Of a stretch of DNA of 64,000 bases, positions 1-52,395 are shown in pieces. This DNA comes from an uncultured bacterium. GTDB taxonomy: Bacteria > Margulisbacteria > WOR-1 > O2-12-FULL-45-9. A model generated the notes under the pieces. That model was not told the DNA's origin, did not search any database, and worked only from the letters and a program-made list of their open reading frames with translations. Each line of letters starts with the position of its first letter. The stretch's first letter is position 1. Location of the stretch: NCBI GenBank assembly GCA_964568455.1, contig CAZMPJ010000007.1, positions 9,393 to 73,392 on the forward strand, written 5' to 3'. The position numbers and the translations under genes are program-made.

Positions 1-320
1 AGCGTGAGTTTGTCAGAAGAGCGGGCTTTGTCTTAATTGCGGCAGCAGCTGTCCATCTTAAAAATTGGAAAGATGAAGATTTTATAGAGTATTTTCCTTT
101 GTTAAAAAAATATGCTACAGATGAGAGGAATTATGTTAAGAAGGCGATTAATTGGGCTTTGAGGCAGATTGGGAAGCGAAATTTAAAATTAAACGAAGAA
201 GCTTTGGCTCTGGCTCAACGAATTGGGAAAATAGATTTACAATCAGCTAAATGGATTGCTAAAGATGCGATCAGAGAGCTGAATCATCCTAAAGTTTTAA
301 AAAGGATTACAAAAAAATGA
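1..320 (+). CDS. DNA alkylation repair enzyme (AlkD/AlkC-like HEAT-repeat glycosylase), C-terminal part; the 5-prime end lies upstream of the window
   Basis: The frame is open from position 3 and translates to REFVRRAGFVLIAAAAVHLKNWKDEDF, then continues into the 99..320 ORF (ATDERNYVKKAINWALRQIGKRN). This conserved C-terminal motif is typical of the DNA alkylation repair protein family. Confidence 0.55.
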   Translation, partial: REFVRRAGFVLIAAAAVHLKNWKDEDFIEYFPLLKKYATDERNYVKKAINWALRQIGKRNLKLNEEALALAQRIGKIDLQSAKWIAKDAIRELNHPKVLKRITKK

Positions 321-1219
321 AAGAATTAATTATTATTGGTGGAGGGCCGGCTGGAATCACGGCTGCGGTTTATGCGGCCAGGAAGCGAATGGATTTTTGC
401 GTGATTACCAAAGATGTTGGAGGGCAAGCTGCCTTGTCGGGTGATATTGAAAATTATACTGGATTCCAGTTTATTACTGGTCCGGATTTAGCCCAAAAAT
501 TTAGAGAGCATTTGGAAAAGTATAAGTTTGAGCTTCAAGAAGGGGACGAGGTTAAAAAGGTTAAAAAAACCGATTTAGGATTTAAAGTTAAAACTACTTC
601 CGGAAAAGAGCTGGAAGCAAAAACTCTGATTGTGGCTTCTGGTAAAATCCCCCGCTTGTTAAACGCTAAGGGTGAGAAAGAGTTTAAAAATAAAGGCGTA
701 ACTTATTGCGCAACTTGTGATGGTCCTTTGTTTGCTAAAAAAGATGTGGCAGTAATCGGTGGGGGCAATTCTGCTTTGGATGCAGCGTTGCAAATGACTA
801 AAATTGCTAATAAAGTTTATGTGATTAATATTAATCAGGATTTTAGTGGTGACCAGGTCTTAAAAGATAAGGTTTTAGCGGCTAAAAATGTTGAAGTGTT
901 AAATAAAGCTAAAACGACTGAGTTTTTTGGGGATAAATTTCTAAAAGGCTTAAAAGTTGAGATTGCTGGAAAAGAAAAAACTATTAATGTTGAAGGGGTT
1001 TTTGTGGAAGTAGGCATGGTGCCTAATGCTTATTTTATTGATTTTGTGAAAAAAAACAAACGCGGTGAAATTATAATCAATTGCGCAGCACAAACTTCAA
1101 TTCCCGGCATCTTTGCTGCGGGAGACGTGACTGATGTGCCAGATAAGCAGATTGTAATTGCGGCTGGCGATGGTTCCAAAGCTGCGTTGGCTGCTTTCAA
1201 ATATTTATCAGTGCATTAA
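317..1219 (+). CDS. trxB: thioredoxin-disulfide reductase
   Basis: N-terminal FAD motif GGGPAGITAAVYAARK, redox-active CATCDG motif, NAD(P) motif GGGNSALD. The 300-aa length fits TrxB. Confidence 0.85.
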   Translation: MKELIIIGGGPAGITAAVYAARKRMDFCVITKDVGGQAALSGDIENYTGFQFITGPDLAQKFREHLEKYKFELQEGDEVKKVKKTDLGFKVKTTSGKELEAKTLIVASGKIPRLLNAKGEKEFKNKGVTYCATCDGPLFAKKDVAVIGGGNSALDAALQMTKIANKVYVININQDFSGDQVLKDKVLAAKNVEVLNKAKTTEFFGDKFLKGLKVEIAGKEKTINVEGVFVEVGMVPNAYFIDFVKKNKRGEIIINCAAQTSIPGIFAAGDVTDVPDKQIVIAAGDGSKAALAAFKYLSVH

Positions 1220-1229
1220 GATGCAATAA

Positions 1230-1760
1230 TTAGCCTTCTATGATCCAGCGTTCTTCTTTTTTAAACCAATCACCGGGATTATTTAAGTATTGCAGGGTAT
1301 CATCTAATATTTCATAGTGTTCTTGTTCTTCTTTGGCCAAGGCGGCAAAAAATTTCTTAGCGGTTTCATCCTGACTTTCTTTGGAAATGCGGTCATAAAG
1401 ATTGTAGCTATCTGTTTCCAGTCCTTCAGCAATTTTATAGGCCTCATTAATATCTTGTTCTGTTTTAAATTTTTTATCCAAGCTGGCCTTTAGCTTTAAT
1501 AGGATAGGTTTTAGTAGTTCTTCTTTTTTGGGTGATACTTCAACCCCTTTAAGCCAATCGCTTGGCAGTTTTTTATCCCCGGTTAATTGTTGGTGAAACT
1601 CTTTAATTTTTTCAATATGAATCAATTCTCTGTCTGCTAAGCTTTGTAGGGTGGAGGCGGCGAGGGGATTATTAGTCTTAAGCGTGGTTTGAGTGTAAAA
1701 GTCATAGCCTTTTTTTTCGAGTTCAATTGCAAGCTTTGTGTCGGCGATTAAATCCATCAT
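1230..1760 (-). CDS. ferritin-like diiron (rubrerythrin-family) domain protein
   Basis: 176 aa with paired E..EEQEHY-type helices (ELIHIEKIKEFH, EEQEHYEIL) typical of ferritin-like/rubrerythrin diiron domains. A GGAGG RBS precedes the start. Confidence 0.5.
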   Translation of the reverse strand: MMDLIADTKLAIELEKKGYDFYTQTTLKTNNPLAASTLQSLADRELIHIEKIKEFHQQLTGDKKLPSDWLKGVEVSPKKEELLKPILLKLKASLDKKFKTEQDINEAYKIAEGLETDSYNLYDRISKESQDETAKKFFAALAKEEQEHYEILDDTLQYLNNPGDWFKKEERWIIEG

Positions 1761-1860
1761 TATAGTTGTCCCTCCTTGCCATTATTTTTTATATCATATA
1801 TCATAACAAACATATAGAACTTGGCAAGCTTATTTATGGTATAAAAAGGAGGAAATAGAA

Positions 1861-2235
1861 ATGGCTAAATATTTAGGGGTTTATAAGTGTGAGATTTGCG
1901 GAAATATCGTAGAAGTGGTTCATGCTGGAGATGGAGAGTTGGTTTGCTGTGGACAGCCAATGAAATTAATGGTTGAAAATACAGTTGATGCGGCTAAAGA
2001 AAAACATATTCCAGTAATTGAAAAAACTGAGTGTGGAATTAAAGTTAAGGTTGGTTCTGTGGCCCATCCCATGGAAGCAAAACATTATATTGAATGGATT
2101 GAGGTTATTTCTGATGGTAAAGCTTATCGCGCTTTTTTAAAACCAGGAGATAAGCCAGAAGCTGAGTTTTGTGTGCCAAGTGAAAATGTAATAGTAAGAG
2201 CCTATTGTAATTTGCATGGGCTTTGGAAAGCGTAA
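1861..2235 (+). CDS. dfx: desulfoferrodoxin (2Fe superoxide reductase)
   Basis: N-terminal desulforedoxin motif CEICGN...CCGQPM followed by a neelaredoxin-type domain (HIPVIE...[13 protein letters not shown]...C..H). 124 aa. AGGAGG RBS. Confidence 0.9.
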
Positions 2236-2242
2236 ATAAAAA

Positions 2243-2752
2243 ATGCAGCTGGAAACTTTACATAAAGTTAGCTATGGGTTATATATTATAGCCGCGGTTA
2301 AAGAAGGGAAATTTAACGGCCAAATTGCTAACACGGTAATGCAGATTACTTCTGATCCGCCAACTGTTGCAATAAGCATTAATAAGCAAAATCTAACCCA
2401 TGAATATATTGAAAGCAGCAAGGGTTTTGCTGTTTCCATACTTGAAAAAGGTACGCCCATGACATTTATTGGTACTTTTGGTTTTAAATCTGGAAAAAAC
2501 ATAGATAAATTTAAAGATGTAAAGGTTAAAACAGCAAAAACAAAAGCGCCGATTGTGCTTGATTACAGTTTGGGTTACCTTGAATGTGAAGTAGTTGGCC
2601 AGCTAGATTGCGGCACCCATACTATATTTTTGGGAAAAGTTATTGGTGCGGAAATATTGAATTCTGCAGAGCCAATGACTTATGCTTATTATCATGATGT
2701 AAAACGCGGTAAGGCTCCGCCAACCGCGCCTACATATATTAAGGGGGAATAA
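2243..2752 (+). CDS. flavin reductase-like FMN-binding domain protein (candidate rubredoxin/FDP-associated reductase)
   Basis: 169 aa with the core motifs of the flavin reductase-like domain family (SVNS/ISINK...[11 protein letters not shown]...[10 protein letters not shown]). Sits between dfx and rubredoxin. Confidence 0.65.
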
Positions 2753-2754
2753 TT

Positions 2755-2919
2755 ATGGAAGAATATGTTTGCAAGGTTTGTGGTTATATCTATGATCCTA
2801 AAAAAGGCGATCCGGATAATGGGATAAAAGCAGGAACGGCTTTTGTTGATGTGCCAGAAGATTGGGTTTGTCCGATTTGCGGAGCAGATAAAAGCCAATT
2901 TGAAAAGAAAGGGGTTTAA
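2755..2919 (+). CDS. rd: rubredoxin
   Basis: Not in the supplied ORF track (below 60 aa). ATG at 2755 with GGGGG RBS. Translation [54 protein letters not shown] carries both CxxCG rubredoxin knuckles and the conserved YIYDP and DVPEDW motifs. Confidence 0.9.
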
Positions 2920-2922
2920 AAT

Positions 2923-4113
2923 TTGAAAGTCGAGGAACTGAAAAAAGATATTTATTATGTTGGGGCACTGGATGGAGGCAGAAAGCTTTTTGATGCGCTG
3001 ATTCCTCTTCCAGACGGGACTAGTTACAATTCTTATTTGATCAAAGGCAGTGAGAAAACTGTTTTAATTGACACGGTTGATCCGGCTAAAGAAAATGTGT
3101 TAATTAAAAATTTAAAAAAGCTTAAAATTGATAAGCTGGACTATATTATTTCCCAGCATTGCGAGCAGGATCATTCTGGCACTATTCCTACTATATTAAA
3201 ATTGTATAAAGATGCCAAAGTGATTACCAATGCCAAGAACAAAGAACTGCTCAAAGAACATTTGTTGATTTCTGAAGACAAGATTGTTGAAATTCAGGAT
3301 GGAGAAGAGCTTTCTTTGGGCAATAAAACCTTAAAATTTATCTTTACTCCTTGGGTGCATTGGCCAGAGACAATGTGTACTTATTTAAAAGAAGACAAAA
3401 TATTGTTTTCTTGCGATTTTTTTGGTTCACACATTGCTTTTACCGATCTTTTTGTAAAAGATAAAAAACATGTTTATGTTGCGGCGAAGAGATATTATGC
3501 GGAAATCATGATGCCTTTTCGTACGGTAATTAAAAGCAACCTTAAAAAAGTTGAAGCTTTGGAGATTGATCTGATTGCTCCTAGTCATGGTTCATTACAT
3601 AATGAGCCTTCTTTTATTATGGATGCTTATCGAGATTGGACTAGTGATAAGGTAAAAAATGAAGTCGTGATCCCTTATGTTTCTATGCATGGTAGCGTGG
3701 CTAAGATGGTTGAGTATCTGGTTAAAGCTTTAGAAGAGAAGGGGATTGTTGTTAAAGCTTTTAATTTAGCTCAGATGGATTTAGGGGAGCTAGCCATGGC
3801 GTTGGTTGATGCGGCTACGGTAGTTATTGCTACGCCAACGGTTTTGGTTCGTCCGCATCCTTTAGCCGTATATGCAGCTTATTTAACCAATGCTTTAAGA
3901 CCTAAAACCAGGTTTGCTTCTATTGTGGGGTCGTATGGGTGGGGTGGTAAGATGCCGGAAGAGATTAAAGGTTTAATTTCAAATTTAAAGGTCGAATTGA
4001 TTGAGCCGGTGATTGCCAAAGGTTATCCCAAAGAAGCTGATTTTAAAGCTTTGGACGAGTTAGCGGAAAAAATAAAAAACAAACACAAAGAGGGGGAAAT
4101 AAATAATGGGTAA
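2923..4113 (+). CDS. fprA: flavodiiron protein (rubredoxin:oxygen/NO oxidoreductase, FprA/ROO type)
   Basis: TTG start. N-terminal metallo-beta-lactamase-like diiron domain (HCEQDHSG) plus C-terminal flavodoxin-like domain. 396 aa. Confidence 0.85.
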   Translation: MKVEELKKDIYYVGALDGGRKLFDALIPLPDGTSYNSYLIKGSEKTVLIDTVDPAKENVLIKNLKKLKIDKLDYIISQHCEQDHSGTIPTILKLYKDAKVITNAKNKELLKEHLLISEDKIVEIQDGEELSLGNKTLKFIFTPWVHWPETMCTYLKEDKILFSCDFFGSHIAFTDLFVKDKKHVYVAAKRYYAEIMMPFRTVIKSNLKKVEALEIDLIAPSHGSLHNEPSFIMDAYRDWTSDKVKNEVVIPYVSMHGSVAKMVEYLVKALEEKGIVVKAFNLAQMDLGELAMALVDAATVVIATPTVLVRPHPLAVYAAYLTNALRPKTRFASIVGSYGWGGKMPEEIKGLISNLKVELIEPVIAKGYPKEADFKALDELAEKIKNKHKEGEINNG

Positions 4114-4684
4114 AAGTGTAAAAGGGACACAAACGGAGAAGAACTTATTAAAGGCGTTTGCAGGGGAGTCGCAAGCAAGGAATAGGTATACTTATTTTGC
4201 TTCGGTGGCTAAAAAAGCAGGATATGAGCAGGTTGCAGCTATATTTTTAGAAACTGCTGAAAACGAAAAAGAACACGCTAAAAGGTTTTTTAAATATTTA
4301 GAAGGTGGGGCAGTTGAAATTGTTGCAGCTTATCCAGCTGGAACCATTAGTTCAACTGAAGAAAATTTAAAGGCCTCGGCTGATGGAGAAAATGAAGAAT
4401 GGACCAAGCTTTATGCTGATTTTGAAAAAGTTGCGCGGGATGAGGGGTTAGAAGAGATTGCTGTCCAATTTAAGGAAATTGCCGAAGTAGAAGAGGAGCA
4501 TGAGAAAAGATATCGAAAATTATTAAAAAATATTAAAGAGAAGAAAGTTTTTAAACGAGATGAAAAAGTAAAATGGCATTGTAGAAATTGTGGTTATGTA
4601 CATGAGGGAACAGAAGCTCCCAAAATGTGTCCAGCTTGCAAACATCCGCAAGCTTATTATGAAATATTAGCAGAGAATTATTAA
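4106..4684 (+). CDS. rbr: rubrerythrin
   Basis: Ferritin-like diiron domain (ENEKEHAKRF, EEEHEKRY) plus a C-terminal rubredoxin-like CRNCGY...CPAC domain. 192 aa. Confidence 0.9.
   Translation: MGKSVKGTQTEKNLLKAFAGESQARNRYTYFASVAKKAGYEQVAAIFLETAENEKEHAKRFFKYLEGGAVEIVAAYPAGTISSTEENLKASADGENEEWTKLYADFEKVARDEGLEEIAVQFKEIAEVEEEHEKRYRKLLKNIKEKKVFKRDEKVKWHCRNCGYVHEGTEAPKMCPACKHPQAYYEILAENY
4638..4683 (+). repeat. left copy of a 46-bp imperfect direct repeat (3-prime end of rbr); the partner copy is at 6929..6974
   Basis: gcaaacatccgcaagcttattatgaaatattagcagagaattatta here versus gcaaacattcgcaggctcattatgaaatattagcagagaattatta at 6929..6974 (43 of 46 identical). Weaker similarity extends about 8 nt further upstream. 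Confidence 0.85.
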
Positions 4685-4757
4685 TAATTAAACGCAAGTT
4701 TTTGCCTCTTTAATACGATAAATTATATAGAGTCTTTGAGCTATGGAATAGCCTAAT

Positions 4758-6848
4758 ATGAGTTTGCAAGTAAACCAAGTAATTGCCAATAGAGCGCCTA
4801 ATAAACCAGAGAAAAGATCAGCTGGTCGCGCTGAATTAGTTCCTAAGCAAAAAACTGATACTGTACAGTTGAGCAATAATACAACTGTTATTGAAAGCAA
4901 GTTTGGCCCCTTATCTCTCCAAGAAAAATCTTTTGTCGGTCAATTTGAAAGTGGTTTGGTTTATGATTTTACCCAAAAAGTAAAATCAAAAAAAGAATTA
5001 CTTTGCCGACTTAAGGCTCTTCAGCCATTGTTGGCAAAAATTAATAAAAGAAAAAAAGATTTTGATAAGCATATACTTTATGACTTATACGGTAATGAGG
5101 CTTTATGGAAAATATCCGCATTAACTCCAGAAAAAATTAGTCAGTGGCAAGGTTCTGTGTGGATAGATAGTATTTTGTCTGGAAATGCAATTATGCTTTT
5201 GAAAATCCAAAAAAAATATGATAACAACATAAATCTGGCCGATTCTAAACTTATATCTGATCTCGACCAAAAACTGCCTTTTAATGTTTTGTTGTTTTTT
5301 GTTGAGCACTCCGAGACTTATGACGAGCTTATGGGTAATTTGCAAAAATTATCAAATTTATATAATAAAGAGAAGCTGTTTTTTGAGCAAGCAAAGAAAA
5401 GGTGTGTGGATTATTTTGGCAAAGTGGTTGAATATGTGTCTTCCCCTCTGGAATTTTTGAGTGAGATAGGTAAATTAACAAAATTTTCCAAAGACAATAA
5501 ACCCTTGATTGCGAATTTAACTAAGAAAAAAATAGATCTGGGTTATTTTTGGGAAAAATCAAAAACAGTTGGCGAGTTTCGTAGGCGACTGTTAAGTCTC
5601 AATAGTTTTTTGGATTTAGTTCGTTTGAAAGAAGAATCTAAAATAAAGGGTTTATGGGTCAATTCGTCTTCAGATTATGTTGGTTTGGACAGGAACCCAT
5701 TTGATATTCTTTTGTGTGCTCCTAATGTTTTAGGTGCCGAAAAGCTTTTGGGAATTTCTGGTTTAGGGGAAAAGGCTCAATCAGTTTATTTAGATGCTGT
5801 TTCTGATGCTGGTAAAACTTATGCAAAAATCATGAAGCAATCTTTGCGCAATATTAGCAACAATGATTTTAAGAAAATAATGATATTGCCTGGAATGAGA
5901 GTAATTGTGACTGAGGATATAGCTCCTTTATTAAATAATCCTTGTTACTTAAATTATCTAAGGAAAAAATATCCAAACCTTGGTTTGAAAAAAGCTTTTT
6001 CAATGACAATTGCGTTTAAGCGCAACTTAAAGGCTATGGGTGTCGCAGACGAAGAAGTTTTGGGATTAAACGAAGAAAAAATAGATTTATGTTTTTCTGA
6101 AATGATGGCGGCTAATAATTATGTTTTTGGTCTTGATATGGTAGGTTCAGGTATTAATGTGATGGTTATTACGGCTGACCCGGAAAATAATGGTATTGGT
6201 GATTGGCACTTTGATGAGATTGTAAATTATGCGAAAAAATATGGTTCAAATATTGTTTTCGCCAAAAAAGGAGCTGGTCCGGACAAAACTAAGTTTTTAG
6301 AAACAGTAAGGATGGCTAAGGGACCCACTAGAATTTTCATTCTGGGGCATGGTAGTGGAAGTGCGATTACGTGTGGTAAAGGAGAAGATATTTCTTATCA
6401 GGAATTAATGGCTGCAGTATCGCAAAATGAGAATCCACAAAATATTATAATTGTAACAGATTGTTGTAATGCGTATGAATTTTATACTAATTTTGAGGGA
6501 AATTACCCTCAAGATATCCTTATGCCGATTGTAATTGGTTTAGGCGGAAATAAGGGGATGCTTTCTTATGAGTTTGGAAGGAGTTATAACTTCAAAGGGA
6601 GTAAGGTAGGGGATTTTTACGCTTTTTTTGAAAAAGACTTTTTTAAAGCGGTAATGTGTGAAAAAGGGGCAAATTTAGACGCTTTTATTCGTCTTGATTG
6701 GCGTTATATTTATAAAAAAATTGACTTGATAGATTTGTTCGAGACACTTAGGCATCCTCAAAAAAAACAGCAGAAAAATGAAAAGGATGTTCGCGATATT
6801 CGTATGGAAGTTAAGAAAACATCTTCTTTTATGTCTCCCCTTGTTTAA
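4758..6848 (+). CDS. large hypothetical protein (696 aa) with a C-terminal clan-CD caspase/legumain-like cysteine peptidase-like domain; N-terminal 450 aa unrecognised
   Basis: A long ORF, intact across a region that is partly very AT-rich. The C-terminal region NVMVITAD...RIFILGHGSGS...(38 aa)...IIIVTDCCNAYEF has the strand-His-Gly ... strand-Asp-Cys arrangement and His-to-Cys spacing of clan CD peptidases. No signal peptide or TM segment. The N-terminal roughly 50 aa are polar and look disordered. Confidence 0.5.
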   Translation: MSLQVNQVIANRAPNKPEKRSAGRAELVPKQKTDTVQLSNNTTVIESKFGPLSLQEKSFVGQFESGLVYDFTQKVKSKKELLCRLKALQPLLAKINKRKKDFDKHILYDLYGNEALWKISALTPEKISQWQGSVWIDSILSGNAIMLLKIQKKYDNNINLADSKLISDLDQKLPFNVLLFFVEHSETYDELMGNLQKLSNLYNKEKLFFEQAKKRCVDYFGKVVEYVSSPLEFLSEIGKLTKFSKDNKPLIANLTKKKIDLGYFWEKSKTVGEFRRRLLSLNSFLDLVRLKEESKIKGLWVNSSSDYVGLDRNPFDILLCAPNVLGAEKLLGISGLGEKAQSVYLDAVSDAGKTYAKIMKQSLRNISNNDFKKIMILPGMRVIVTEDIAPLLNNPCYLNYLRKKYPNLGLKKAFSMTIAFKRNLKAMGVADEEVLGLNEEKIDLCFSEMMAANNYVFGLDMVGSGINVMVITADPENNGIGDWHFDEIVNYAKKYGSNIVFAKKGAGPDKTKFLETVRMAKGPTRIFILGHGSGSAITCGKGEDISYQELMAAVSQNENPQNIIIVTDCCNAYEFYTNFEGNYPQDILMPIVIGLGGNKGMLSYEFGRSYNFKGSKVGDFYAFFEKDFFKAVMCEKGANLDAFIRLDWRYIYKKIDLIDLFETLRHPQKKQQKNEKDVRDIRMEVKKTSSFMSPLV

Positions 6849-6928
6849 CCTGTGATATAATTCAAACAATTAAGATTTTTTTTGGGGGGGGGTATGGATA
6901 ACTCGATCTTTAGTAACGTGCTCAGACC

Positions 6929-6974
6929 GCAAACATTCGCAGGCTCATTATGAAATATTAGCAGAGAATTATTA
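6929..6974 (+). repeat. right copy of the 46-bp direct repeat; a decayed, non-coding remnant of the rbr 3-prime end (reads ...AHYEILAENY*)
   Basis: See the left copy at 4638..4683. The 2291-bp unit between the copies holds only the 4758..6848 ORF. Confidence 0.85.
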
Positions 6975-6991
6975 GTTAAGGGGTTTAGATA

Positions 6992-7408
6992 ATGGCATTT
7001 TTCTTTGCTTTGGTGACGGCTTTATTGTGGGGTATAGCTCCCGTGTTAGAAAAAGCGGGGTTGCGAGGTAATATTGACCCCTTAGTTGCTGTGGTCATTC
7101 GTAGTTTAACAATTTCTTTTGTGGGTCTTCTAACTATGTTGATGCTTAACCGTTTGCCGCAGTTTTCACAAATTTCAATTAAGAATGTAATGCTTATTTT
7201 GCTTGGTGGTTTAATTGCTGGTTTTTTTGCTCAATGGACTTATTATCATGCTTTAAAAATGGGGCAGGCCTCAACTGTTGTTCCAGTAGCAGCAATTTAT
7301 CCTCTAGTTGCCTTGTTTTTATCAGTGCTTTTTCTTGGTGAGTCAATTACTTGGCTAAGATTGGTTGGCGTTGTTTTAGTGGTTGCGGGTGTAATTTTAA
7401 TTAGATAG
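6992..7408 (+). CDS. EamA-like (DMT superfamily) small membrane transporter, 4 TMS
   Basis: 138 aa, four hydrophobic helices, WGIAPVLEKAG and ALFLGE motifs typical of EamA half-transporters. Confidence 0.55.
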   Translation: MAFFFALVTALLWGIAPVLEKAGLRGNIDPLVAVVIRSLTISFVGLLTMLMLNRLPQFSQISIKNVMLILLGGLIAGFFAQWTYYHALKMGQASTVVPVAAIYPLVALFLSVLFLGESITWLRLVGVVLVVAGVILIR

Positions 7409-7418
7409 GGAGTAAGTC

Positions 7419-8462
7419 ATGGCGAAAGATTCTGTTTGTGATGCTTGTGGGGCAAAATCAAAAAGTAAATGGTGGAAAAACAAACTATTTCTAATCTTTT
7501 GTCTTTATGTATTGGTTTTTATTGGAGTAAGATATGTAAATTTTTTAAAACCATTACAAGAATCTCTATTTATGTATTTAGGAACCATTGCGGTGCCAAT
7601 CTTGCTTGGTTTATTTATTGGTGGGGTTATTGATTGGCTTATTCCGGGTGAATATATTTCTGCTTTATTGGCGCCCAAAAGAAAGAGAACCATTATCTAT
7701 TCAGTTATAACTGGTTTTTTTATGTCAGCTTGTAGTCATGGGATTTTGGCTTTGGCAATACAGCTGCATAAAAAAGGAGCTTCTCCTCCAGCGGTAGTAG
7801 CTTTTCTTCTTTCTAGTCCTTGGGCTAATCTGCCTCTCACTATATTAATGTTTGGTTTCTTTGGTGTTAGGGCTTTGTTTATCATTATATCTGCGGTGAT
7901 AATCGCCATAATTACTGGTTATATTTATATGTTTTTAGAAAGCAGGAATTGGATAGAAAAAAACCCTAATACAATTAAATTAGATAGTGATTTTTCTGTA
8001 ATAGATGATGCCAAAGTGAGATTGAAAAAAGTAAAAATATCTTTTACTAATAGCTTAAATGCTATAAAAGCTATTTGGAGTGGAAGTGTATCATTAGCCA
8101 ATATGGTTCTTTGGTGGATAATGTTTGGTGTGTTTTTAGCTAGTTTGGCTGCTGCATATTTGCCTGCAGATTTTATGCATCAATATATGGGGGCAACAAT
8201 TTTAGGTTTATTGATTACGCTTTTAATTGCCACGGTTATTGAGATTTGTTCAGAGGGTAGCGCGCCTTTAGCTTTTGAAATTTATCGCCAGACAGGCGCG
8301 CTAGGAAATTCTTTTACTTTTTTAATGGCTGGAGTGGTGACTGATTATACGGAAATAGGGCTTATCTGGCAAAACATTGGCTGGCGCACCGCAGTTTGGC
8401 TCCCGATTATAACTGTTCCCCAAGTTATTATTTTGGCGATTTTAGCTAATATGTTTTTATAA
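7419..8462 (+). CDS. predicted permease, DUF318/COG0701 (ArsP-like) family
   Basis: 347 aa polytopic membrane protein with an N-terminal CDACG stretch, GGVIDWLIPGE and MSACSHG motifs reminiscent of the ArsP/DUF318 permease family. Confidence 0.45.
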   Translation: MAKDSVCDACGAKSKSKWWKNKLFLIFCLYVLVFIGVRYVNFLKPLQESLFMYLGTIAVPILLGLFIGGVIDWLIPGEYISALLAPKRKRTIIYSVITGFFMSACSHGILALAIQLHKKGASPPAVVAFLLSSPWANLPLTILMFGFFGVRALFIIISAVIIAIITGYIYMFLESRNWIEKNPNTIKLDSDFSVIDDAKVRLKKVKISFTNSLNAIKAIWSGSVSLANMVLWWIMFGVFLASLAAAYLPADFMHQYMGATILGLLITLLIATVIEICSEGSAPLAFEIYRQTGALGNSFTFLMAGVVTDYTEIGLIWQNIGWRTAVWLPIITVPQVIILAILANMFL

Positions 8463-8807: not shown

Positions 8808-8833
8808 AAGCCCTATAATAAAAAATAGGGCTT
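8808..8833 (+). terminator. perfect 9-bp-stem hairpin (aagccctat/atagggctt) downstream of the 8477..8782 gene; its right arm overlaps the -35 box of the next promoter
   Basis: Inverted repeat read directly from the sequence. No clear U-tract follows, so terminator function is uncertain. Confidence 0.3.
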
Positions 8834-8859
8834 GACAAATATCTTAAATAGGTATAATA
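8832..8859 (+). promoter_or_regulatory. sigma70-like promoter (TTGACA-16nt-TATAAT) for the Rrf2-hcp operon; a 12-bp perfect palindrome ATATGTACATAT at 8857-8868 overlaps the predicted TSS and start codon
   Basis: Consensus -35 at 8832-8837 and -10 at 8854-8859. The ATG at 8870 is only about 10 nt downstream, which implies a leaderless or near-leaderless transcript. Confidence 0.45.
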
Positions 8860-8869
8860 TGTACATATT

Positions 8870-9265
8870 ATGAAAATAACAAGAGCATCAGATTTTGCGA
8901 TTCGTTTGTTGGTTCATTTAGCGTCGAAAGGTGGAGAGGGGACCAGTCAAGAACTTGCCAAAGAAATTAATGTTTCTTTTAATCATTTGGCAAAACTGGT
9001 TCCGATTTTAGCCAGGCACGGGTTTATTATTACCCAAAAAGGAAAAGGAGGCGGCATACGCTTAGCCAGGAATCCCAGGAAAATCGATTTGGCTGAAGTA
9101 ATTGAGGCAATTGAGGGTCCGCTTGTAATTAGTGATTGTATCTTCCATAAAAGTTCTTGCCGATTTAGTAAGGAATGCAAAGCCAGGAAGTGTTTGAATA
9201 AGGTTCGCAAAGGAATGTTAAAGGTTTTGTCTAACACAACAGTTAAAGAGTTAGTAGCAAATTAA
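8870..9265 (+). CDS. Rrf2-family transcriptional regulator with an Fe-S cluster-binding Cys motif (NsrR/IscR-like)
   Basis: N-terminal wHTH typical of Rrf2 (ASDFAIRLLVHLA...ELAKEINVSFNHLAKLV), GGG(I)RLAR motif, and C-x6-C-x5-C-x4-C near the C-terminus. Lies directly upstream of hcp. Confidence 0.85.
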   Translation: MKITRASDFAIRLLVHLASKGGEGTSQELAKEINVSFNHLAKLVPILARHGFIITQKGKGGGIRLARNPRKIDLAEVIEAIEGPLVISDCIFHKSSCRFSKECKARKCLNKVRKGMLKVLSNTTVKELVAN

Positions 9266-9287
9266 AATAGAAAGGAGGTGGAAAAAT

Positions 9288-9587
9288 ATGAATCTTGAAG
9301 AACTCAATGTTTTCTTAGAAGCAAACCCAGCCGTAGAGTGGACACAGGATGACGATGGTAATTTGTATTTTCGTCATGCTAATTTTGGTGCGGAAAATGA
9401 AAAGATAAAAGTAGAGCCCAAAGCATTAGAAAAGCTTACCGCAGAGAAGTTAGAAAAGGTTTTAATCGGTGGCAGAAATATTGACCATATTACTCGTGTT
9501 ACTGGTTACTTTTCCAGAGTTTCTGGATGGAACAAAGGTAAGCGTGGAGAGTTAAAAGATAGAGAGCGTGTAAAAGTACATGGTTAA
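9288..9587 (+). CDS. small protein resembling the C-terminal glycyl-radical segment of class III ribonucleotide reductase NrdD (autonomous glycyl-radical-like mini-protein)
   Basis: 99 aa. The C-terminus ITRVTGYFSRVSGWNKGKRGELKDRERVKVHG parallels the NrdD C-terminus (R-x-C-G-Y-L-G...N-x-G-K...E-V...R-V-K-H). No Cys residues. GGAGG RBS. Its 3-prime end overlaps the next gene by 8 nt. Confidence 0.4.
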   Translation: MNLEELNVFLEANPAVEWTQDDDGNLYFRHANFGAENEKIKVEPKALEKLTAEKLEKVLIGGRNIDHITRVTGYFSRVSGWNKGKRGELKDRERVKVHG

Positions 9588-10275
9588 ACGTAAGATTATA
9601 AAAATAGACGAAGATAAGTGTGATGGGTGCGGACAATGTGTTTCTGCTTGTGCCGAGGGTGCTCTCCAAATAGTAAATGGGAAAGCAAAGTTGGTTAGCG
9701 ATATCTATTGTGACGGCCTAGGAGCTTGCATTGGAGAGTGCCCTCAAGACGCAATTAGTTTTGAGGAAAGAGAAGCAAAAGAATTTAGCGAAAAAGCAGT
9801 GAAAGAGAGGGAAAAGCAAATGTCTGGATGTCCGGGGGCAAAGGTTGTGGAATTTTCTAAGGAAGAAGGTAAGGCCGAAGAGGGAAAAAGATCCTCACAG
9901 CTTAGGCAGTGGCCAATTCAGCTGCATTTAGTTCCTCCTTCTGCTCCTTATTTCAAAGGGGCAGATGTGTTGCTAGCGGCAGATTGTGTGGCTTTTTCTT
10001 TGGGAGATTTTCATAAAGATTATTTAAAAGGAAAAAGCTTAGCTATTGCTTGTCCAAAACTAGATAGCGATCAAGAGATTTACATAGAAAAAATTAAATC
10101 ATTGATTGATGACGCTAAAATTAATACTTTGACTGTGATGATTATGCAGGTCCCATGTTGTGGTGGCTTATTACAAATTGCAAAAACTGCGGCAACAAAA
10201 GCCTCAAGAAAAATTCCGATTAAGGTGATTGTAATTGGTTTGAATGGAGATGTTCTAAAAGAAGAATGGGTATAG
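9580..10275 (+). CDS. ferredoxin-like 4Fe-4S-binding domain protein with a C-terminal domain of unknown function (PCCGG motif)
   Basis: CDGCGQCVSAC (C-x2-C-x2-C-x3-C) and a second CDGLGACIGECP motif in the N-terminal 60 aa, then roughly 170 aa unrecognised. Translationally coupled to the upstream mini-protein and followed by hcp. Confidence 0.6.
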   Translation: MVKRKIIKIDEDKCDGCGQCVSACAEGALQIVNGKAKLVSDIYCDGLGACIGECPQDAISFEEREAKEFSEKAVKEREKQMSGCPGAKVVEFSKEEGKAEEGKRSSQLRQWPIQLHLVPPSAPYFKGADVLLAADCVAFSLGDFHKDYLKGKSLAIACPKLDSDQEIYIEKIKSLIDDAKINTLTVMIMQVPCCGGLLQIAKTAATKASRKIPIKVIVIGLNGDVLKEEWV

Positions 10276-33774: not shown

Positions 33775-36160
<2,386 letters not shown>

Positions 36161-36164
<4 letters not shown>

Positions 36165-36751
36165 AGATAGATCATAAAATTATAGCGGACTTGATTCAAG
36201 ATGGCTCAAAGGTCTTAGACCTTGGTTGTGGCGATGGAAGCTTGCTGGAATCTTTAATTAAAAATAAAAATGTTACTGGCATGGGAGTGGATAATTGGCC
36301 GGAAGGTTTAAATGAATCCATGAGCAAGGGGTTGCCGGTAATGCAGTTTGACTTAAATAAAGGGTTACAAACGTTTAAAGACCAGTCTTTTGATTATGTG
36401 GTCTTAAACATGACTTTGCAGGCCATGAATCGGCCAGACCAAGTAATTAAAGAGATGATCAGGGTAGGTAAAAAAGCGATTGTAGGCTTTCCAAACTTTG
36501 GCCATTATAAATTAGTTTTGCGAATGCTTTTTAGTGGTAGGATGCCTAAGACCAAAACCTTGCCTTATGAATGGTATAACAGCCCTAATATCAGGCTAAT
36601 GACTATTCAGGATTTTAGACAGCTTTGTGTTGACACTAATCTAAAGATATTAAAACAAACCTTTTTAAATGAAAATGGAAAACAGATTTCAGGCCATTTA
36701 ATGAGGTGGCGAGCTTCGGAAGGTATATTCCTGCTTGAGAGTGCAAGTTAA
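36161..36751 (+). CDS. metW: methionine biosynthesis protein MetW
   Basis: 196 aa. [11 protein letters not shown] methyltransferase-like motif. Overlaps the metX stop, as usual for metXW. Confidence 0.8.
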
Positions 36752-36782
36752 CCTCTATTTAACCCGATAATATATATAGAGA

Positions 36783-38019: not shown

Positions 38020-39510
38020 GTGATGGTAAATCCAGTTTTTATTGCTAATCGTGGTCCGATTGCGTATAAAGCTATGCGGGCTTTGCATGGGTTGGGTGTG
38101 TCCAAAAAACAAGGTCCAATAATGCCTTATACTGCCAAAGATATACCTTCAGCCGGTTTGCTGGGGATTCCCTGGTTTTCAAATCCCGACTTTCCTAGAT
38201 GGGCTCGGCCAGTTTCTGATTATTTAAATTTACAAGAGCTATTAGTTTTGGCGAAAACTTTTGAGGCCAAATCTCTTTATCCTGGTTTTGGTTTTTTTGC
38301 AGAAAATCCGCAAGCGGCTAAAGCTTGTGAAGAAAAGGGAATTACCTGGGTTGGGCCTTCTTCGGCGGTGTTAGAGTTGTGTGCTGATAAAGCTCGGGCT
38401 AAAAAACTAGCTTTTGCTTTGGGTGTACCGGTAATCCCAGGAACATTTGAACCAGTTAGGCTAGAGAATGCTTTGCAAGAGGCTGCGCGAATAGGTTATC
38501 CTGTGCGAATAAAATCAATTAGCGCTGGAGGAGGAAGAGGACAGGCTGTGGTGAGTGAGCCTGGACAGCTTAAAGAAGCAATGCAAAGAATAGCAACAAT
38601 GTCACAGAAATTAACTGGAGATGATCGAGTAATTTTAGAAAAGCATTTAGAGCCTACTCGTCATATTGAAGTGCAATTTATAAGTGATGGAGATAAGGTT
38701 TTACACTTTGGTGCACGTAATTGCAGTATTCAAATTCCTGGCCGTTATCAGAAGTTAATGGAAAAAGCAGTTTATCCAGGACAAAGTGGATTATCAGAAA
38801 AAGAAAGTCAGTTAATTCAAAATATAATTGATGTGGCTGTAAAATTTGTTAAAGGTGTTAATTATCGCGGAGTGGGTACTTTTGAGGTTTTGGTGGACAA
38901 GGAAAATAATTTTTATTTCATGGAAGTAAATCCTCGCATTCAAGTAGAGCATCCGGTTACGGAAATGGTGGCAAGAGTCAAAGGCAAAGAAATTGATTTA
39001 ATTGAAGAACAATTTAAATTAGCTGCGGGTTTATCTTTAGATTATGATCAAACTGATATTACTTTTGTAGGACATTCAATTCAAGCGCGTATTATAGCGA
39101 TGGATTTTGATACTTTTATGCCTTTTGCAACTAGATTAAAGTGTTATAAACCCCCTCAATTAATTCCAGGTAAAGTACGACTGGAAGATGGAGGATTAAG
39201 TTATCTTTTTGGGGAACGAGGTTTTCGTGGAGAATATCCAATTAGCATGGAATATGATCCAATGTTTGCTCAGCTGATTGTCTGGAATGAAGATAGGTTG
39301 GGAGCCATGAGTGAATTGAGCAAAGCATTAATTAATTATCGTTTAAGAGGGAAGGTAAAAACTTCTATCCCTTTTATTTATGGTTTATTGCACAATAGTT
39401 TATATGGATTAGGAGACGAGCATATTTTTACTGATTTTACAGCCAAGGAAGCGGATATAATCAGGGCTATTGGTACTAATATGGCCGACAGAGAATACCG
39501 TGAGATATAA
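38020..39510 (+). CDS. biotin carboxylase-like ATP-grasp enzyme (AccC/PycA family, divergent, with an about 40-aa insertion after the N-terminal domain)
   Basis: VFIANRGPIA, GFGFFAENPQ, ISAGGGRGQAVV, EKHLEPTRHIEVQF match the biotin carboxylase B/ATP-grasp core. No BCCP or carboxyltransferase gene is adjacent. Confidence 0.65.
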   Translation: MMVNPVFIANRGPIAYKAMRALHGLGVSKKQGPIMPYTAKDIPSAGLLGIPWFSNPDFPRWARPVSDYLNLQELLVLAKTFEAKSLYPGFGFFAENPQAAKACEEKGITWVGPSSAVLELCADKARAKKLAFALGVPVIPGTFEPVRLENALQEAARIGYPVRIKSISAGGGRGQAVVSEPGQLKEAMQRIATMSQKLTGDDRVILEKHLEPTRHIEVQFISDGDKVLHFGARNCSIQIPGRYQKLMEKAVYPGQSGLSEKESQLIQNIIDVAVKFVKGVNYRGVGTFEVLVDKENNFYFMEVNPRIQVEHPVTEMVARVKGKEIDLIEEQFKLAAGLSLDYDQTDITFVGHSIQARIIAMDFDTFMPFATRLKCYKPPQLIPGKVRLEDGGLSYLFGERGFRGEYPISMEYDPMFAQLIVWNEDRLGAMSELSKALINYRLRGKVKTSIPFIYGLLHNSLYGLGDEHIFTDFTAKEADIIRAIGTNMADREYREI

Positions 39511-49617: not shown

Positions 49618-50162
49618 TTAGTATTGGTTTTATTGATGAAGACAAGGTTTTATTTGATAAAACCATTGCAGAACTGCATTCAGAAAAAATATTATATTAT
49701 GTTAAGCAAAAAGGTATTAAGCCCGAACAAATTGATGCAGTAGCGGTTGCGGCTGGTCCTGGCTCATATTCCGGTCTGCGTGGGGGGCTAGCTACAGCTA
49801 AACTTTTGGCTCAAACTTTAAATATTCCGCTAGTTTTAGTTTCCACCCTTGAAGCCATTGCCTATGATCAAGTTGATCAAGATGGAGAAATTACAGTTGT
49901 TTTAAATGCTAAAAGAGATGAATATAATTATGCTAAATTTAAAGCGGGAAAAGGCCAACTAATTCGCTTAACAGATGATTTGGTATCAACCATGGATAAG
50001 GTTGATATTGAAAATTCGATTGTCTTAAAAGAAATAAATCCGTTAGGTATAAATATTGCTAAATTAGGCTTAATAATGCTAAAATCAGGCCAGATAGAGG
50101 ATCCTCTGAAGGCGATCCCAAAATATTCACATCAACCGAATATAAGGGAGTATAAAAAATGA
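49581..50162 (+). CDS. tsaB: tRNA threonylcarbamoyladenosine biosynthesis protein TsaB
   Basis: 193 aa inactive Kae1/YeaZ-like N-terminus (MRVLGISSATKVISIG, AVAAGPGSYSGLR). Confidence 0.8.
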   Translation: MRVLGISSATKVISIGFIDEDKVLFDKTIAELHSEKILYYVKQKGIKPEQIDAVAVAAGPGSYSGLRGGLATAKLLAQTLNIPLVLVSTLEAIAYDQVDQDGEITVVLNAKRDEYNYAKFKAGKGQLIRLTDDLVSTMDKVDIENSIVLKEINPLGINIAKLGLIMLKSGQIEDPLKAIPKYSHQPNIREYKK

Positions 50163-51202
50163 AAAAGTTTGTAATTTTTGGATTGGCTATTGTTTGTTTT
50201 TTGCTGTTTGTTGTTTATGTAATGATTGGTTGTGGTTCAGCCGTAAGTCCCGCTACCACGACGACAACCGTTGCGACAACTAGCACTACTACAACCACCA
50301 CTAGCACAACCACAACTTCTACTTCATCGACTAGTACCAGCACAACAACTAGTACCACTCTTTCCGGAAGTTGGGAAACAAAAGCTAGTTTGCCTACAGC
50401 GCGATCTGCTTTGGCAGTTGGTGTGGTTGAGAATAAAATCTATGCTATTGGGGGAAATGCTGGCTATCAAGTAAATGAAGAGTATAATGCTAGTGCAGAT
50501 GCTTGGACACCAAAAACTGATGTGGATTTGGGAGGACTGGATTGGGGTGCTGGGGTTGTCAATGATAAAATTTATGTCATTGGTGGAACAATCCAGCCTT
50601 ATGGGGCCTGTGGAACAGTTGAAATATATGATCAACCACTTAATTCATGGTCTTATGGGACAGATATGCCAACGCCACGTACGGCTCTAGCAGTGGTGGT
50701 TGTTAATGATTTGATTTATGCTATAGGTGGCACAGATAATGAAGGCGCATTACTTGGGACAGTTGAAGTTTATTATCCAGCAACAGATACCTGGGAGGCC
50801 AAAACAGACATGCCTACTCCACGTGGTAGCCTAGCGGCGGCCGTTGTTAATGGTAAAATTTATGTAATTGGAGGAGATCAAGCAGACACGGTGGTCGAGG
50901 AGTATGACCCAGCATTAGATATTTGGACAACAAAAGCCAGTATGCCAACTGGTCGTTCTAAATTAGTGGTTGGAGTAATAGATAATAAAATTTATGCAAT
51001 TGGCGGAGGAATTGGTTCTTCAAATTATCTTTCTACAGTTGAAATGTATGATCCTGCATTAGATGAGTGGACCAATTGCACCCCTATGTCAGTGGCTCGC
51101 GGCCGTTTTGCAGTTGGCGTAGTCAATAATAAAATTTACGCTATTGGCGGAGAAGATAATATTGGAGAAAAAGTAGCAACGGTTGAGGCTTTTACACCCT
51201 AA
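50159..51202 (+). CDS. Kelch-repeat (six-bladed beta-propeller) lipoprotein with a Thr/Ser-rich linker
   Basis: Signal peptide with lipobox-like MIGC|GS, about 45 aa of T/S-rich low complexity, then six repeats of the KIYAIGG...W...P...R pattern. Coding GC is visibly higher than surrounding genes. Confidence 0.75.
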   Translation: MKKFVIFGLAIVCFLLFVVYVMIGCGSAVSPATTTTTVATTSTTTTTTSTTTTSTSSTSTSTTTSTTLSGSWETKASLPTARSALAVGVVENKIYAIGGNAGYQVNEEYNASADAWTPKTDVDLGGLDWGAGVVNDKIYVIGGTIQPYGACGTVEIYDQPLNSWSYGTDMPTPRTALAVVVVNDLIYAIGGTDNEGALLGTVEVYYPATDTWEAKTDMPTPRGSLAAAVVNGKIYVIGGDQADTVVEEYDPALDIWTTKASMPTGRSKLVVGVIDNKIYAIGGGIGSSNYLSTVEMYDPALDEWTNCTPMSVARGRFAVGVVNNKIYAIGGEDNIGEKVATVEAFTP

Positions 51203-51644: not shown

Positions 51645-52395
51645 GGCAATGCTTCGTAGGGCAAGGCTTCGTAGGGCAAGGCTTTTAGCCTTGCGAATAA
51701 ACTACTACGGGAATAATTATCATGAATGAAGAAATAAAACACAAGAAAAGGTTGCGTTTAAAATATTTTAATTATGAAGGTTATTATTCCTATTTTGTTA
51801 CCATTTGTACGTTGGATAAAAAAGAAATATTTATTGATAAATCAATTGTTAATCCGATTGTTGGTTTCCTGAAAGAGTTGAGCAGTAATTATAATTTTAT
51901 CGTTTATGCCTATTGTTTTATGCCAGATCATCTACATTTGTTGTTGCAAGGAAATGATGAAAAAGCCAATCTAAAGAAATTTGTTTCAATGTTTAAGCAG
52001 AAAAGCGGGTTTTGGTATAAGAAGAAGTTTGATGCTAAGTTGTGGCAAATTAATTATTATGAACATGTTTTAAGAAAAGAAAAGGCAATTAAAGAGATTG
52101 CCTATTATATTTTTGCTAATCCAGTGAGGCAAAAATTAATTGAAGATTATCGTGATTATCCGTTTTCTGGTTCATTTGAATTTGATATTAAACAAGGAAT
52201 CATTTAATATGTGGTTGGCGGAATAAGCAACCCTAAAAGGGTTGCCTTACGGGAGAGATTGATTCCAAACGTAGGGCAAGGCTTTTAGCCTTGCGGATAG
52301 ATGAAGGCGCAACCCTAAAAGGGTTGCCTTACGGGAGAGATTGATTCCAAATGTAGGGCAAGGCTGTAGGGCAATGCTTTTAGCATTGCGGATAA
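51641..52395 (+). mobile_element. RAYT (REP-associated tyrosine transposase) gene flanked by REP/BIME-like arrays
   Basis: Left flank holds three tandem gtagggcaa(g/t)gctt units ending in the hairpin gcaaggct-ttt-agccttgc. The right flank has two about 60-bp direct repeats, each with the hairpin gcaaccc-taaaa-gggttgc plus gtagggcaaggct and more gcaaggct/gcaatgct hairpins. Confidence 0.75.
51722..52207 (+). CDS. IS200/IS605-like Y1 transposase of the REP-associated (RAYT) type
   Basis: 161 aa. HuH motif MPDHLHLLL and C-terminal catalytic-Tyr region LWQINYYEHVLR...IAYYIFANPV typical of TnpA-REP. Confidence 0.78.
   Translation: MNEEIKHKKRLRLKYFNYEGYYSYFVTICTLDKKEIFIDKSIVNPIVGFLKELSSNYNFIVYAYCFMPDHLHLLLQGNDEKANLKKFVSMFKQKSGFWYKKKFDAKLWQINYYEHVLRKEKAIKEIAYYIFANPVRQKLIEDYRDYPFSGSFEFDIKQGII

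Follow-up and report, generated by a model that had tools for sequence, protein, structure and literature searches.

The window analysed here, a stretch of 64,000 nucleotides (64 kb) from an uncultured bacterium of the Margulisbacteria (GenBank assembly GCA_964568455.1, contig CAZMPJ010000007.1, positions 9,393 to 73,392), contains an oxidative-stress gene cluster on the plus strand. According to the gene annotation of the window, this cluster encodes, in this order, desulfoferrodoxin, flavin reductase, rubredoxin, flavodiiron protein, rubrerythrin (rbr), a protein of 696 amino acids (aa), an EamA-family protein, an ArsP-type permease, a 101-aa protein and Rrf2, and further downstream of Rrf2 a hybrid-cluster protein. 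The open reading frame (ORF) for the 696-aa protein, here called the cargo ORF, forms together with its short flanks the module that is described in this study. It lies between rbr and EamA and is bracketed by two copies of the 3′ end of rbr. The features of the locus are listed below; L009 is the locus with the same cluster in a sister genome (GCA_974502175.1, contig CDDLMF010000077.1), and L014 is a locus from a distant relative.

4106–4684, plus strand: rbr (rubrerythrin, 192 aa), intact (NCBIfam RuberyRbr, E 3.4e-92; Pfam Rubrerythrin and RUBY_RBDX)
4638–4683, plus strand: direct repeat copy 1 (functional rbr 3′ end), with two derived bases compared to L009 and L014
4694–4755, plus strand: conserved leader of the module, identical at 62 of 62 positions to the leader of the L009 homologue
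4758–6848, plus strand: cargo ORF, 696 aa, with a disordered N-terminus, a helical domain and a C-terminal clan-CD fold
6849–6928, plus strand: unique 3′ flank of the module, 80 nt, without homologue in the loci compared
6929–6974, plus strand: direct repeat copy 2, a non-coding and displaced remnant of the rbr 3′ end, adjoining the EamA side as the rbr end does in L009
6975–6991, plus strand: spacer of 17 nt with a Shine-Dalgarno-like AAGGGG before EamA, absent in L009
6992–7408, plus strand: EamA-family gene (Pfam), 91% aa identical to L009
7419–8462, plus strand: ArsP-type permease gene (Pfam), 91% aa identical to L009
8477–8782, plus strand: gene for a small membrane protein of 101 aa, missing in L009

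The last 46 nt of rbr were found to recur at 6929–6974 with 43 of 46 positions identical, as had been claimed in the original prediction, which was made from the sequence alone. Between the copies, only 9 nt, the 62-nt leader, a single ORF of 2.1 kb and the 80-nt 3′ flank were present, also as predicted, and the inserted interval is 2,291 bp. The last 28 nt of the two copies are identical, and all three differences fall within the first 18 nt. The pair could be extended by a repeat tool to 60 nt (4624–4683 and 6915–6974; 51 of 60 identical). Since the extra 14 nt (6915–6928 on the downstream side) showed identity at 8 positions only, and since identity upstream of 6915 was at background level (0.25–0.35, null 0.27) with no rbr remnant there, the solid repeat is 46 nt. 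The upstream copy supplies the end of rbr. In the rbr frame, the downstream copy translates to RKHSQAHYEILAENY and a stop codon; it is not part of any long ORF and is a dead remnant, which agrees with its earlier description as decayed and non-coding. As judged from a scan of the 64-kb window, the repeat is not a genome-wide motif: its 26-nt core was found exactly twice when up to three mismatches were allowed, and not once in 100 shuffles.

In L009, rbr is directly followed by EamA, with the rbr stop codon overlapping the EamA start (TAATG; TATTAATGGC). This junction is the empty site that had been predicted for related genomes. The rbr protein is 95% aa identical to its L009 orthologue, and nine neighbouring genes show 87–95% aa identity between the window and L009. 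A homologue of the cargo ORF is present in L009 as well, 1.5 kb downstream in the same cluster, where it sits between ArsP and the terminator preceding Rrf2, in the slot that the 101-aa gene occupies in the window. In a blastn map, adjacent blocks have changed places between the window and L009:

Window 1846–4685 corresponds to L009 2628–5460: up to the rbr stop
Window 4694–4791 and 5696–6560 correspond to L009 6933–7030 and 7920–8787: module
Window 6929–8458 corresponds to L009 5413–6924: rbr end, EamA and ArsP in a single piece
Window 8829–9566 corresponds to L009 9063–9800: Rrf2 region

In the distant relatives L014 and L015 (EamA 57% identical), the order is rbr-LMWPc-EamA followed by an ORF of 116 aa, and in the distant relative L011 it is HCP-EamA. 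The 696-aa family was absent from the loci L014, L015 and L011, so that rbr and EamA were linked without the ORF in L014 and L015. The 101-aa protein of the window is homologous to the 116-aa ORF after EamA in L014 (47% over 93 aa, E 4e-8). From these layouts, tight rbr-EamA linkage without a large ORF, and with a gene for a small membrane protein downstream, is the older state. The window is derived at the rbr-EamA junction and L009 at the ArsP-Rrf2 junction. A search of contigs of GTDB representative genomes with ArsP gave one distant Candidatus Margulisiibacteriota locus (ArsP 66% identical), which was not syntenic. The empty site in L009 and the linkage in the outgroups bear out the prediction of a derived single-gene insertion: the insertion is real, it is derived and it consists of one gene.

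The same comparison gave further differences between the two genomes. The first approximately 180 nt of EamA (6989–7168) showed 78–79% similarity to L009, compared to 82–91% for the rest of the block. The cluster also differs upstream (window 99–1760, L009 1845–2642): L009 contains a Fur-family gene between thioredoxin and desulfoferrodoxin, and the window contains instead a DNA-alkylation-repair-like gene, a TrxB-like reductase gene and a rubrerythrin-like gene on the reverse strand.

Population contigs from JGI, ENA and Logan assemblies (three pipelines, different samples) were compared to the window. Four independent contigs spanned both repeat copies and matched the window throughout the cassette, and six further contigs reached copy 2 from the EamA side with a sequence identical to the window. 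All contigs that reached the junction were occupied, and neither an empty-site nor an excised form was seen among them. The 3′ flank contains, between the cargo stop and the rbr remnant, a tract of T8 (6876–6883) followed by G9 (6884–6892) that was invariant in the population contigs reaching it. Two short Logan contigs end at this tract, which could be expected from an assembly artefact or from a chimeric contig formed at the repeat. Since the independent assemblies agree across samples, the cassette is not such an artefact; this explanation is effectively refuted and its probability is negligible.

The history of the repeat was read from an alignment of both copies with L009 and L014. At the GAG AAx site, both window copies have AAT, and L009 and L014 have AAC; AAT is thus a derived state common to the two copies. 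At the Gln/Ala/His codons, copy 1 reads CAA GCT TAT, copy 2 and L009 read CAG GCT CAT, and L014 reads CAG TCC CAT. Copy 1 has changed from CAG to CAA (synonymous) and from CAT to TAT (H184Y), and copy 2 is ancestral at both positions. At the CAT xCG site, CCG is found in copy 1, L009 and L014, and TCG in copy 2, a change of its own. Because AAT is common to both copies, the repeat was sourced from the window lineage's own rbr after the split from L009. The downstream copy, which is still joined to EamA as in L009, is the displaced original. No more-diverged imported tract and no mosaic was found in the 3′ half of rbr. The copies differ by 6.5% (3/46) compared to a between-species synonymous divergence of about 0.65, so the duplication is younger than the species split, though it is not new. 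The earlier description of the insertion as recent has to be qualified: the copies have already diverged at 3 of 46 positions and every population contig reaching the junction is occupied.

The same alignment bears on the reverse polarity, in which the window order would be ancestral and the module would have been relocated downstream in L009, with exact removal of the rbr remnant. With only one sister genome the polarity is not overdetermined. However, the TAATG overlap in L009 matches the tight packing in the outgroups, the change from AAC to AAT in both window copies and not in L009 or L014 places the duplication inside the window lineage, and the low divergence between the copies stands against the much higher synonymous divergence between the species. 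We therefore regard this polarity as very improbable.

Low GC content had been taken as a mark of the cassette, and this was found to hold only weakly. The cargo ORF has 33.8% GC, compared to 36.8% for rbr and a mean of 37.7% (standard deviation 2.6) for the 55 window ORFs. Its GC content at third codon positions (GC3) is 0.28 compared to 0.30 ± 0.04 for the window, and its synonymous codon-usage distance from the pooled window is 0.102, which is below the mean of 0.146. The cargo ORF is compositionally native.

Its history is nevertheless separate from that of the genes around it. Between the window and L009, the module ORFs showed 46.5% aa identity compared to 87–95% in the nine neighbours, and a synonymous divergence (dS) of 1.7 compared to 0.50–0.81. 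Identity at four-fold sites of conserved residues was 0.38 (n = 93), compared to 0.59–0.74 in the nine neighbours and 0.59–0.85 across all orthologues with at least 87% aa identity; in the C-terminal domain, which is well aligned, it was 0.33–0.36. As the latter values are near the approximately 0.30 expected for unrelated sequences of such composition, which is our own estimate from third-position base composition, the two module ORFs are much older than the species split. Two more syntenic genes were also saturated: a gene for a pyridoxal-phosphate enzyme of Cys/Met metabolism (33793–35064; L009 12218–13429) with 73.5% aa identity and a four-fold identity of 0.32, and a biotin-carboxylase-like gene (38020–39510; L009 16970–18538) with 45% and 0.40, respectively. 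The immediate neighbours of both are 93–97% identical. Three of approximately 16 syntenic genes are thus synonymously saturated between the sister species, and gene-sized allelic replacement through recombination with diverged relatives seems, from these comparisons, to be common in the lineage. The history of the cargo ORF is consistent with its having been acquired, through exchange, from a different but related lineage that uses codons in the same way. Horizontal acquisition, as originally proposed, is partly supported by this separate history, but the gene is not foreign to the clade, since the sister genome encodes a homologue elsewhere in this cluster, preceded by the identical 62 nt of leader. 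The two modules were also considered as paralogues from an ancient tandem duplication, and this was dropped because EamA and ArsP would then be equally diverged, yet they are 91% identical. A locally hypermutated ORF, such as one of diversity-generating retroelement type, was dropped as well, as no evidence for it was found.

One rival explanation is tandem duplication followed by random loss from the L009 order rbr-EamA-ArsP-module. A left breakpoint 46 nt before the rbr stop would have produced rbr-EamA-ArsP-module-rbr3′-EamA-ArsP-module, after which the first EamA-ArsP and the second module would have been lost, with replacement of the module allele either later or earlier. This would explain that the genomes differ by exactly one swap of adjacent blocks, that the rbr remnant is attached to EamA in native adjacency and that the repeat derives from resident sequence, and the allelic replacement seen at other loci could account for the old ORF. 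Known cases of tandem duplication and random loss resemble the window in the block swap and in the partial gene copies at the breakpoint. They differ in that several steps are needed and that orthologous ORFs are predicted, whereas the window and L009 ORFs are far older than their flanks; the saturated synonymous divergence contradicts simple orthology. At least three events plus an allelic replacement would be required, both deletions would have to be clean, as no trace of leader or ORF is left between ArsP and the 101-aa gene, and in the ancestor the module and the gene for the small membrane protein would both have to lie downstream of ArsP, a layout that was not observed. We consider this explanation unlikely.

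All genes between 99 and 12334 were identified, and no recombinase, integrase or transposase was found in the unit or within 5 kb of it, which confirms the predicted lack of an integrase. Among the 46 window ORFs that were scanned or had precomputed Pfam hits, the only mobility gene encodes an IS200-like Y1 transposase (51722–52207, plus strand), 45 kb away. This transposase has 161 aa (Pfam Y1_Tnp, E 3.4e-12), and its gene has the lowest GC content of the 55 ORFs (27.4%). Mobilization by it was rejected, as this type inserts without target duplication. Convincing terminal inverted repeats were not found for the module; the best end-to-end pair (19 nt, 74% complementarity) is absent in L009. 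An insertion sequence, a transposon or a miniature inverted-repeat transposable element was likewise rejected, as there is no transposase, there are no convincing terminal inverted repeats and the duplication is 46 nt compared to 2–14 bp. The 3′ flank of the module had no homologue in any locus compared, and the 3′ flanks in the window and L009 had neither sequence nor palindrome in common. Integron cassettes are similar to the module in that single-ORF units occur at varied positions and that a short conserved non-coding element accompanies a variable ORF. In the module, however, it is the 5′ side of the ORF that has the conserved element, which resembles a promoter, and no attC-like palindrome, IntI, attI or array is present; with no such palindrome at the 3′ end and no integrase nearby, an integron cassette was rejected.

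Direct repeats at a gene end (attL/attR) are also what is left by integrative islands that enter the 3′ ends of tRNA, tmRNA and some protein genes and rebuild these ends from a copy borne by the element. Integration of this kind had been suggested, beside illegitimate recombination, by the original prediction. The window unit resembles such islands in the gene-end repeats, the intact gene and the empty site in a relative. It differs from them in that it has no integrase, contains one 2.1-kb gene of native composition and has no excised form, that its repeat copies share a host-lineage substitution, and that other members of the family lack such repeats. A related possibility is site-specific integration of a small circular element with an att site mimicking the rbr 3′ end, by a recombinase acting in trans or since lost. 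The 28-nt identical stretch would then be the crossover core, and the diverged upstream bases of copy 2 would be borne by the element. In line with this, direct repeats of a gene 3′ end bracket the insert with the gene intact, all differences lie upstream of the 28-nt core and similarity fades further upstream, copy 2 has CAG GCT CAT like other lineages, the module is found at different places in related genomes, and its leader is conserved beyond expectation. Against it, an integrase is missing from the unit and the 5 kb around it and the distant Y1 transposase makes no target duplication, the homologues in L009 and L017 (a further locus, described below) have no flanking repeats or partial gene copies around them, no excised or empty form was found in the population contigs reaching the junction, the window-lineage substitution is common to both copies, and scans of viral, genome and metagenome collections gave no match to the leader. 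An att-like core was not found either, nor were a recombinase or an excised form. Integration in the manner of tRNA-end elements thus gained no positive evidence, with AAT in both copies and ancestral bases kept in copy 2, and we judge a site-specific origin to be distinctly unlikely.

The leader (4694–4755) is identical at all 62 positions to the leader of the L009 homologue despite different upstream genes, and the identity collapses at the start codon. It contains AAGTTT (4696–4701) and CGATAA (4716–4721) separated by 14 nt, and a hairpin of 5 bp with a GGA loop (4740–4752). The motif GCAAGTT(T/A)..CCTC..CGATAA (AAGTTW-N14-CGATAA), with CCTC in the spacer common to all sites, was found at the following positions:

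Window 4696–4721
Window 36745–36770
L009 6935–6960
L009 15681–15706
L017 7966–7991

In L017 the motif lies upstream of P0015, a distant homologue of the cargo protein in an unrelated housekeeping context, and 28 of 36 nt match the window leader. P0015 is flanked by short inverted repeats (7683–7703 and 9887–9940; 16 nt at 94% and 21 nt at 86%), which may represent a genome-wide intergenic repeat. The second sites in the window (36745) and L009 (15681) lie upstream of a gene for a secreted 140-aa protein with a sub-threshold 3D domain.

The −10 consensus of sigma-28 is GCCGATAA and the −35 of P. aeruginosa fliC is TCTAAAG (PMC12784957). Compared to sigma-28 (FliA/SigD) promoters, with TAAAG as −35, the leader is similar in its CGATAA and AAG(TTT) boxes, CGATAA being exact, and the motif occurs before two unrelated genes and is retained in front of a distant homologue. 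It differs in having CAAG at −35 and a spacing that exceeds that of P. aeruginosa fliC by one base. In the annotated parts of the 64-kb window, neither fliA nor any flagellar gene was seen. By resemblance, the motif may be a sigma-28-type promoter, which we regard as a lead. A sigma-70 scan gave nothing above shuffle expectation, an Rfam search of 4400–7200 gave no family, and the leader RNA did not fold better than shuffles (z-score +2.2). In a terminator scan, no terminator was found behind rbr or behind the cargo ORF, so that EamA-ArsP can be read through from the module. The exact leader sequence was not found in genome, metagenome and viral contig collections.

The perfect leader could also be more than a promoter, namely the end by which a novel type of single-gene mobile cassette is defined. 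Such cassettes, with diverged ORFs behind a near-invariant 5′ element, would be moved in trans by a hypothetical recombinase and dropped at gene 3′ ends, with target duplications of approximately 46 nt created on insertion. If true, this would explain the identical leader beside a saturated ORF, the different slots in the sister genomes and the 28-nt core. We consider such a cassette improbable.

Among 5.8 billion proteins, a single close homologue of the cargo protein was found, the 672-aa P0002 (47% identical), which is encoded at L009. An exhaustive HMMER search of 1.84 billion representatives gave a family of 12 proteins including the two query sequences. The family is very rare, with about a dozen representatives. 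The full-length ORF had no match in Pfam, NCBIfam, PADLOC and PHROGs, and no family members were found in the metagenome contigs that were scanned with a protein pattern. Residues 1–38 are disordered, and there is no signal peptide. Residues approximately 40–360 form a helical domain that was modelled confidently and had no significant match in the PDB (Foldseek). The full-length model was poor in the C-terminal half. In the C-terminal region, G530, G532 and C570 do not vary within the family, and 11 of its 12 members have H531 (codons at 6348–6350 for His531 and 6465–6467 for Cys570). A profile of this region matched the GPI-anchor transamidase GPI8 weakly in the PDB (E 0.015), with the GHG and C of the cargo aligned to the GHG and DTC of GPI8. 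The best score against a curated model was Peptidase_C13 (E 0.014) for one family member, which is below every Pfam threshold. The C-terminus is a clan-CD (legumain/caspase, caspase/haemoglobinase) fold with a conserved His-Cys pair, the His in a His-Gly context and both residues placed after successive strands. Compared to peptidase family C13 (legumain, GPI-anchor transamidase) and other clan-CD proteins (caspases, metacaspases, gingipains, CHAT), the cargo showed 7–15% identity and is unlike these enzymes in its large helical N-domain without match to a solved structure and in lacking a signal peptide. Taken as a whole, the cargo is a new clan-CD-fold protein that is very rare; its helical N-domain is novel, and the putative catalytic pair is in place.

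Taken together, the footprint is best read as that of ordinary recombination and not of an integrase-borne island, and the phenomenon is of a known kind, in which an accessory gene is inserted and its target duplicated. Insertion-duplication through a single crossover and homology-facilitated illegitimate recombination have been described for naturally transformable bacteria. In both, a single event leaves foreign DNA flanked by a duplicated resident stretch, no dedicated recombinase is needed and the DNA may come from diverged relatives. The likeness to the window is drawn from anatomy, the microhomologies at the junctions being uninformative. We give a probability of roughly 60% to the reading that a self-contained, exchangeable accessory module, made up of a promoter-like leader, a 5′ untranslated region and the 696-aa ORF, was inserted between rbr and EamA by duplicative illegitimate or short-homology recombination. 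One duplicative recombination event would have placed the module without a dedicated recombinase in cis, either through insertion-duplication by a single crossover over short homology or through homology-facilitated illegitimate recombination in which a related lineage provided the DNA. As the final 46 nt of rbr would have been copied in the event, rbr stayed intact. The module would work in any slot, as it would bring its own promoter (sigma-28-like by resemblance), and the allele at the window locus would have come from a diverged relative, gene-sized allelic replacement presumably being frequent in these genomes.

Several points weigh against this reading. In no other lineage was the module found behind rbr, the arrangement expected of a donor. 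The duplication of 46 nt is much longer than usual transposon target duplications, and its length alone cannot separate a single crossover from a staggered break or a tandem duplication. The 28-nt identical core, with all differences in the first 18 nt, is also expected from a site-specific crossover. The perfect identity of the 62-nt leader sits badly with a synonymously saturated ORF, and promoter constraint is no obvious explanation for it, because in front of the 3D-like gene, which has the same type of promoter, both the spacer and the untranslated region have diverged between the same genomes. Finally, the polarity is based on one sister genome and two distant outgroups, as there is a single close relative in the databases.

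In another part of the window, a Kelch protein of 347 aa is encoded at 50159–51202 (plus strand) with five Kelch motifs (E 3.9e-63), a domain that is uncommon in bacteria.

The locus illustrates clearly, in a natural setting, that a conserved operon can take up an accessory gene between its members and remain functional in layout. rbr was kept whole because of the 46-nt copy of its end, the inserted gene would bring its own promoter, a sigma-28-like one if the resemblance holds, and EamA is preceded by a ribosome-binding spacer where the sister genome has a stop/start overlap; the AAGGGG spacer may compensate for the lost translational coupling. Current understanding is not overturned by these results, and their value is that of a well-documented case, with a long duplication, a portable promoter-like leader, two slots in sister genomes, a deep allelic split and a caspase-fold cargo as the features worth recording. 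Besides, the cargo defines a very rare family of caspase/legumain fold with a new helical domain and is a pointer to an uncharacterized family, which, if the protein is active, would represent a new bacterial clan-CD protease.

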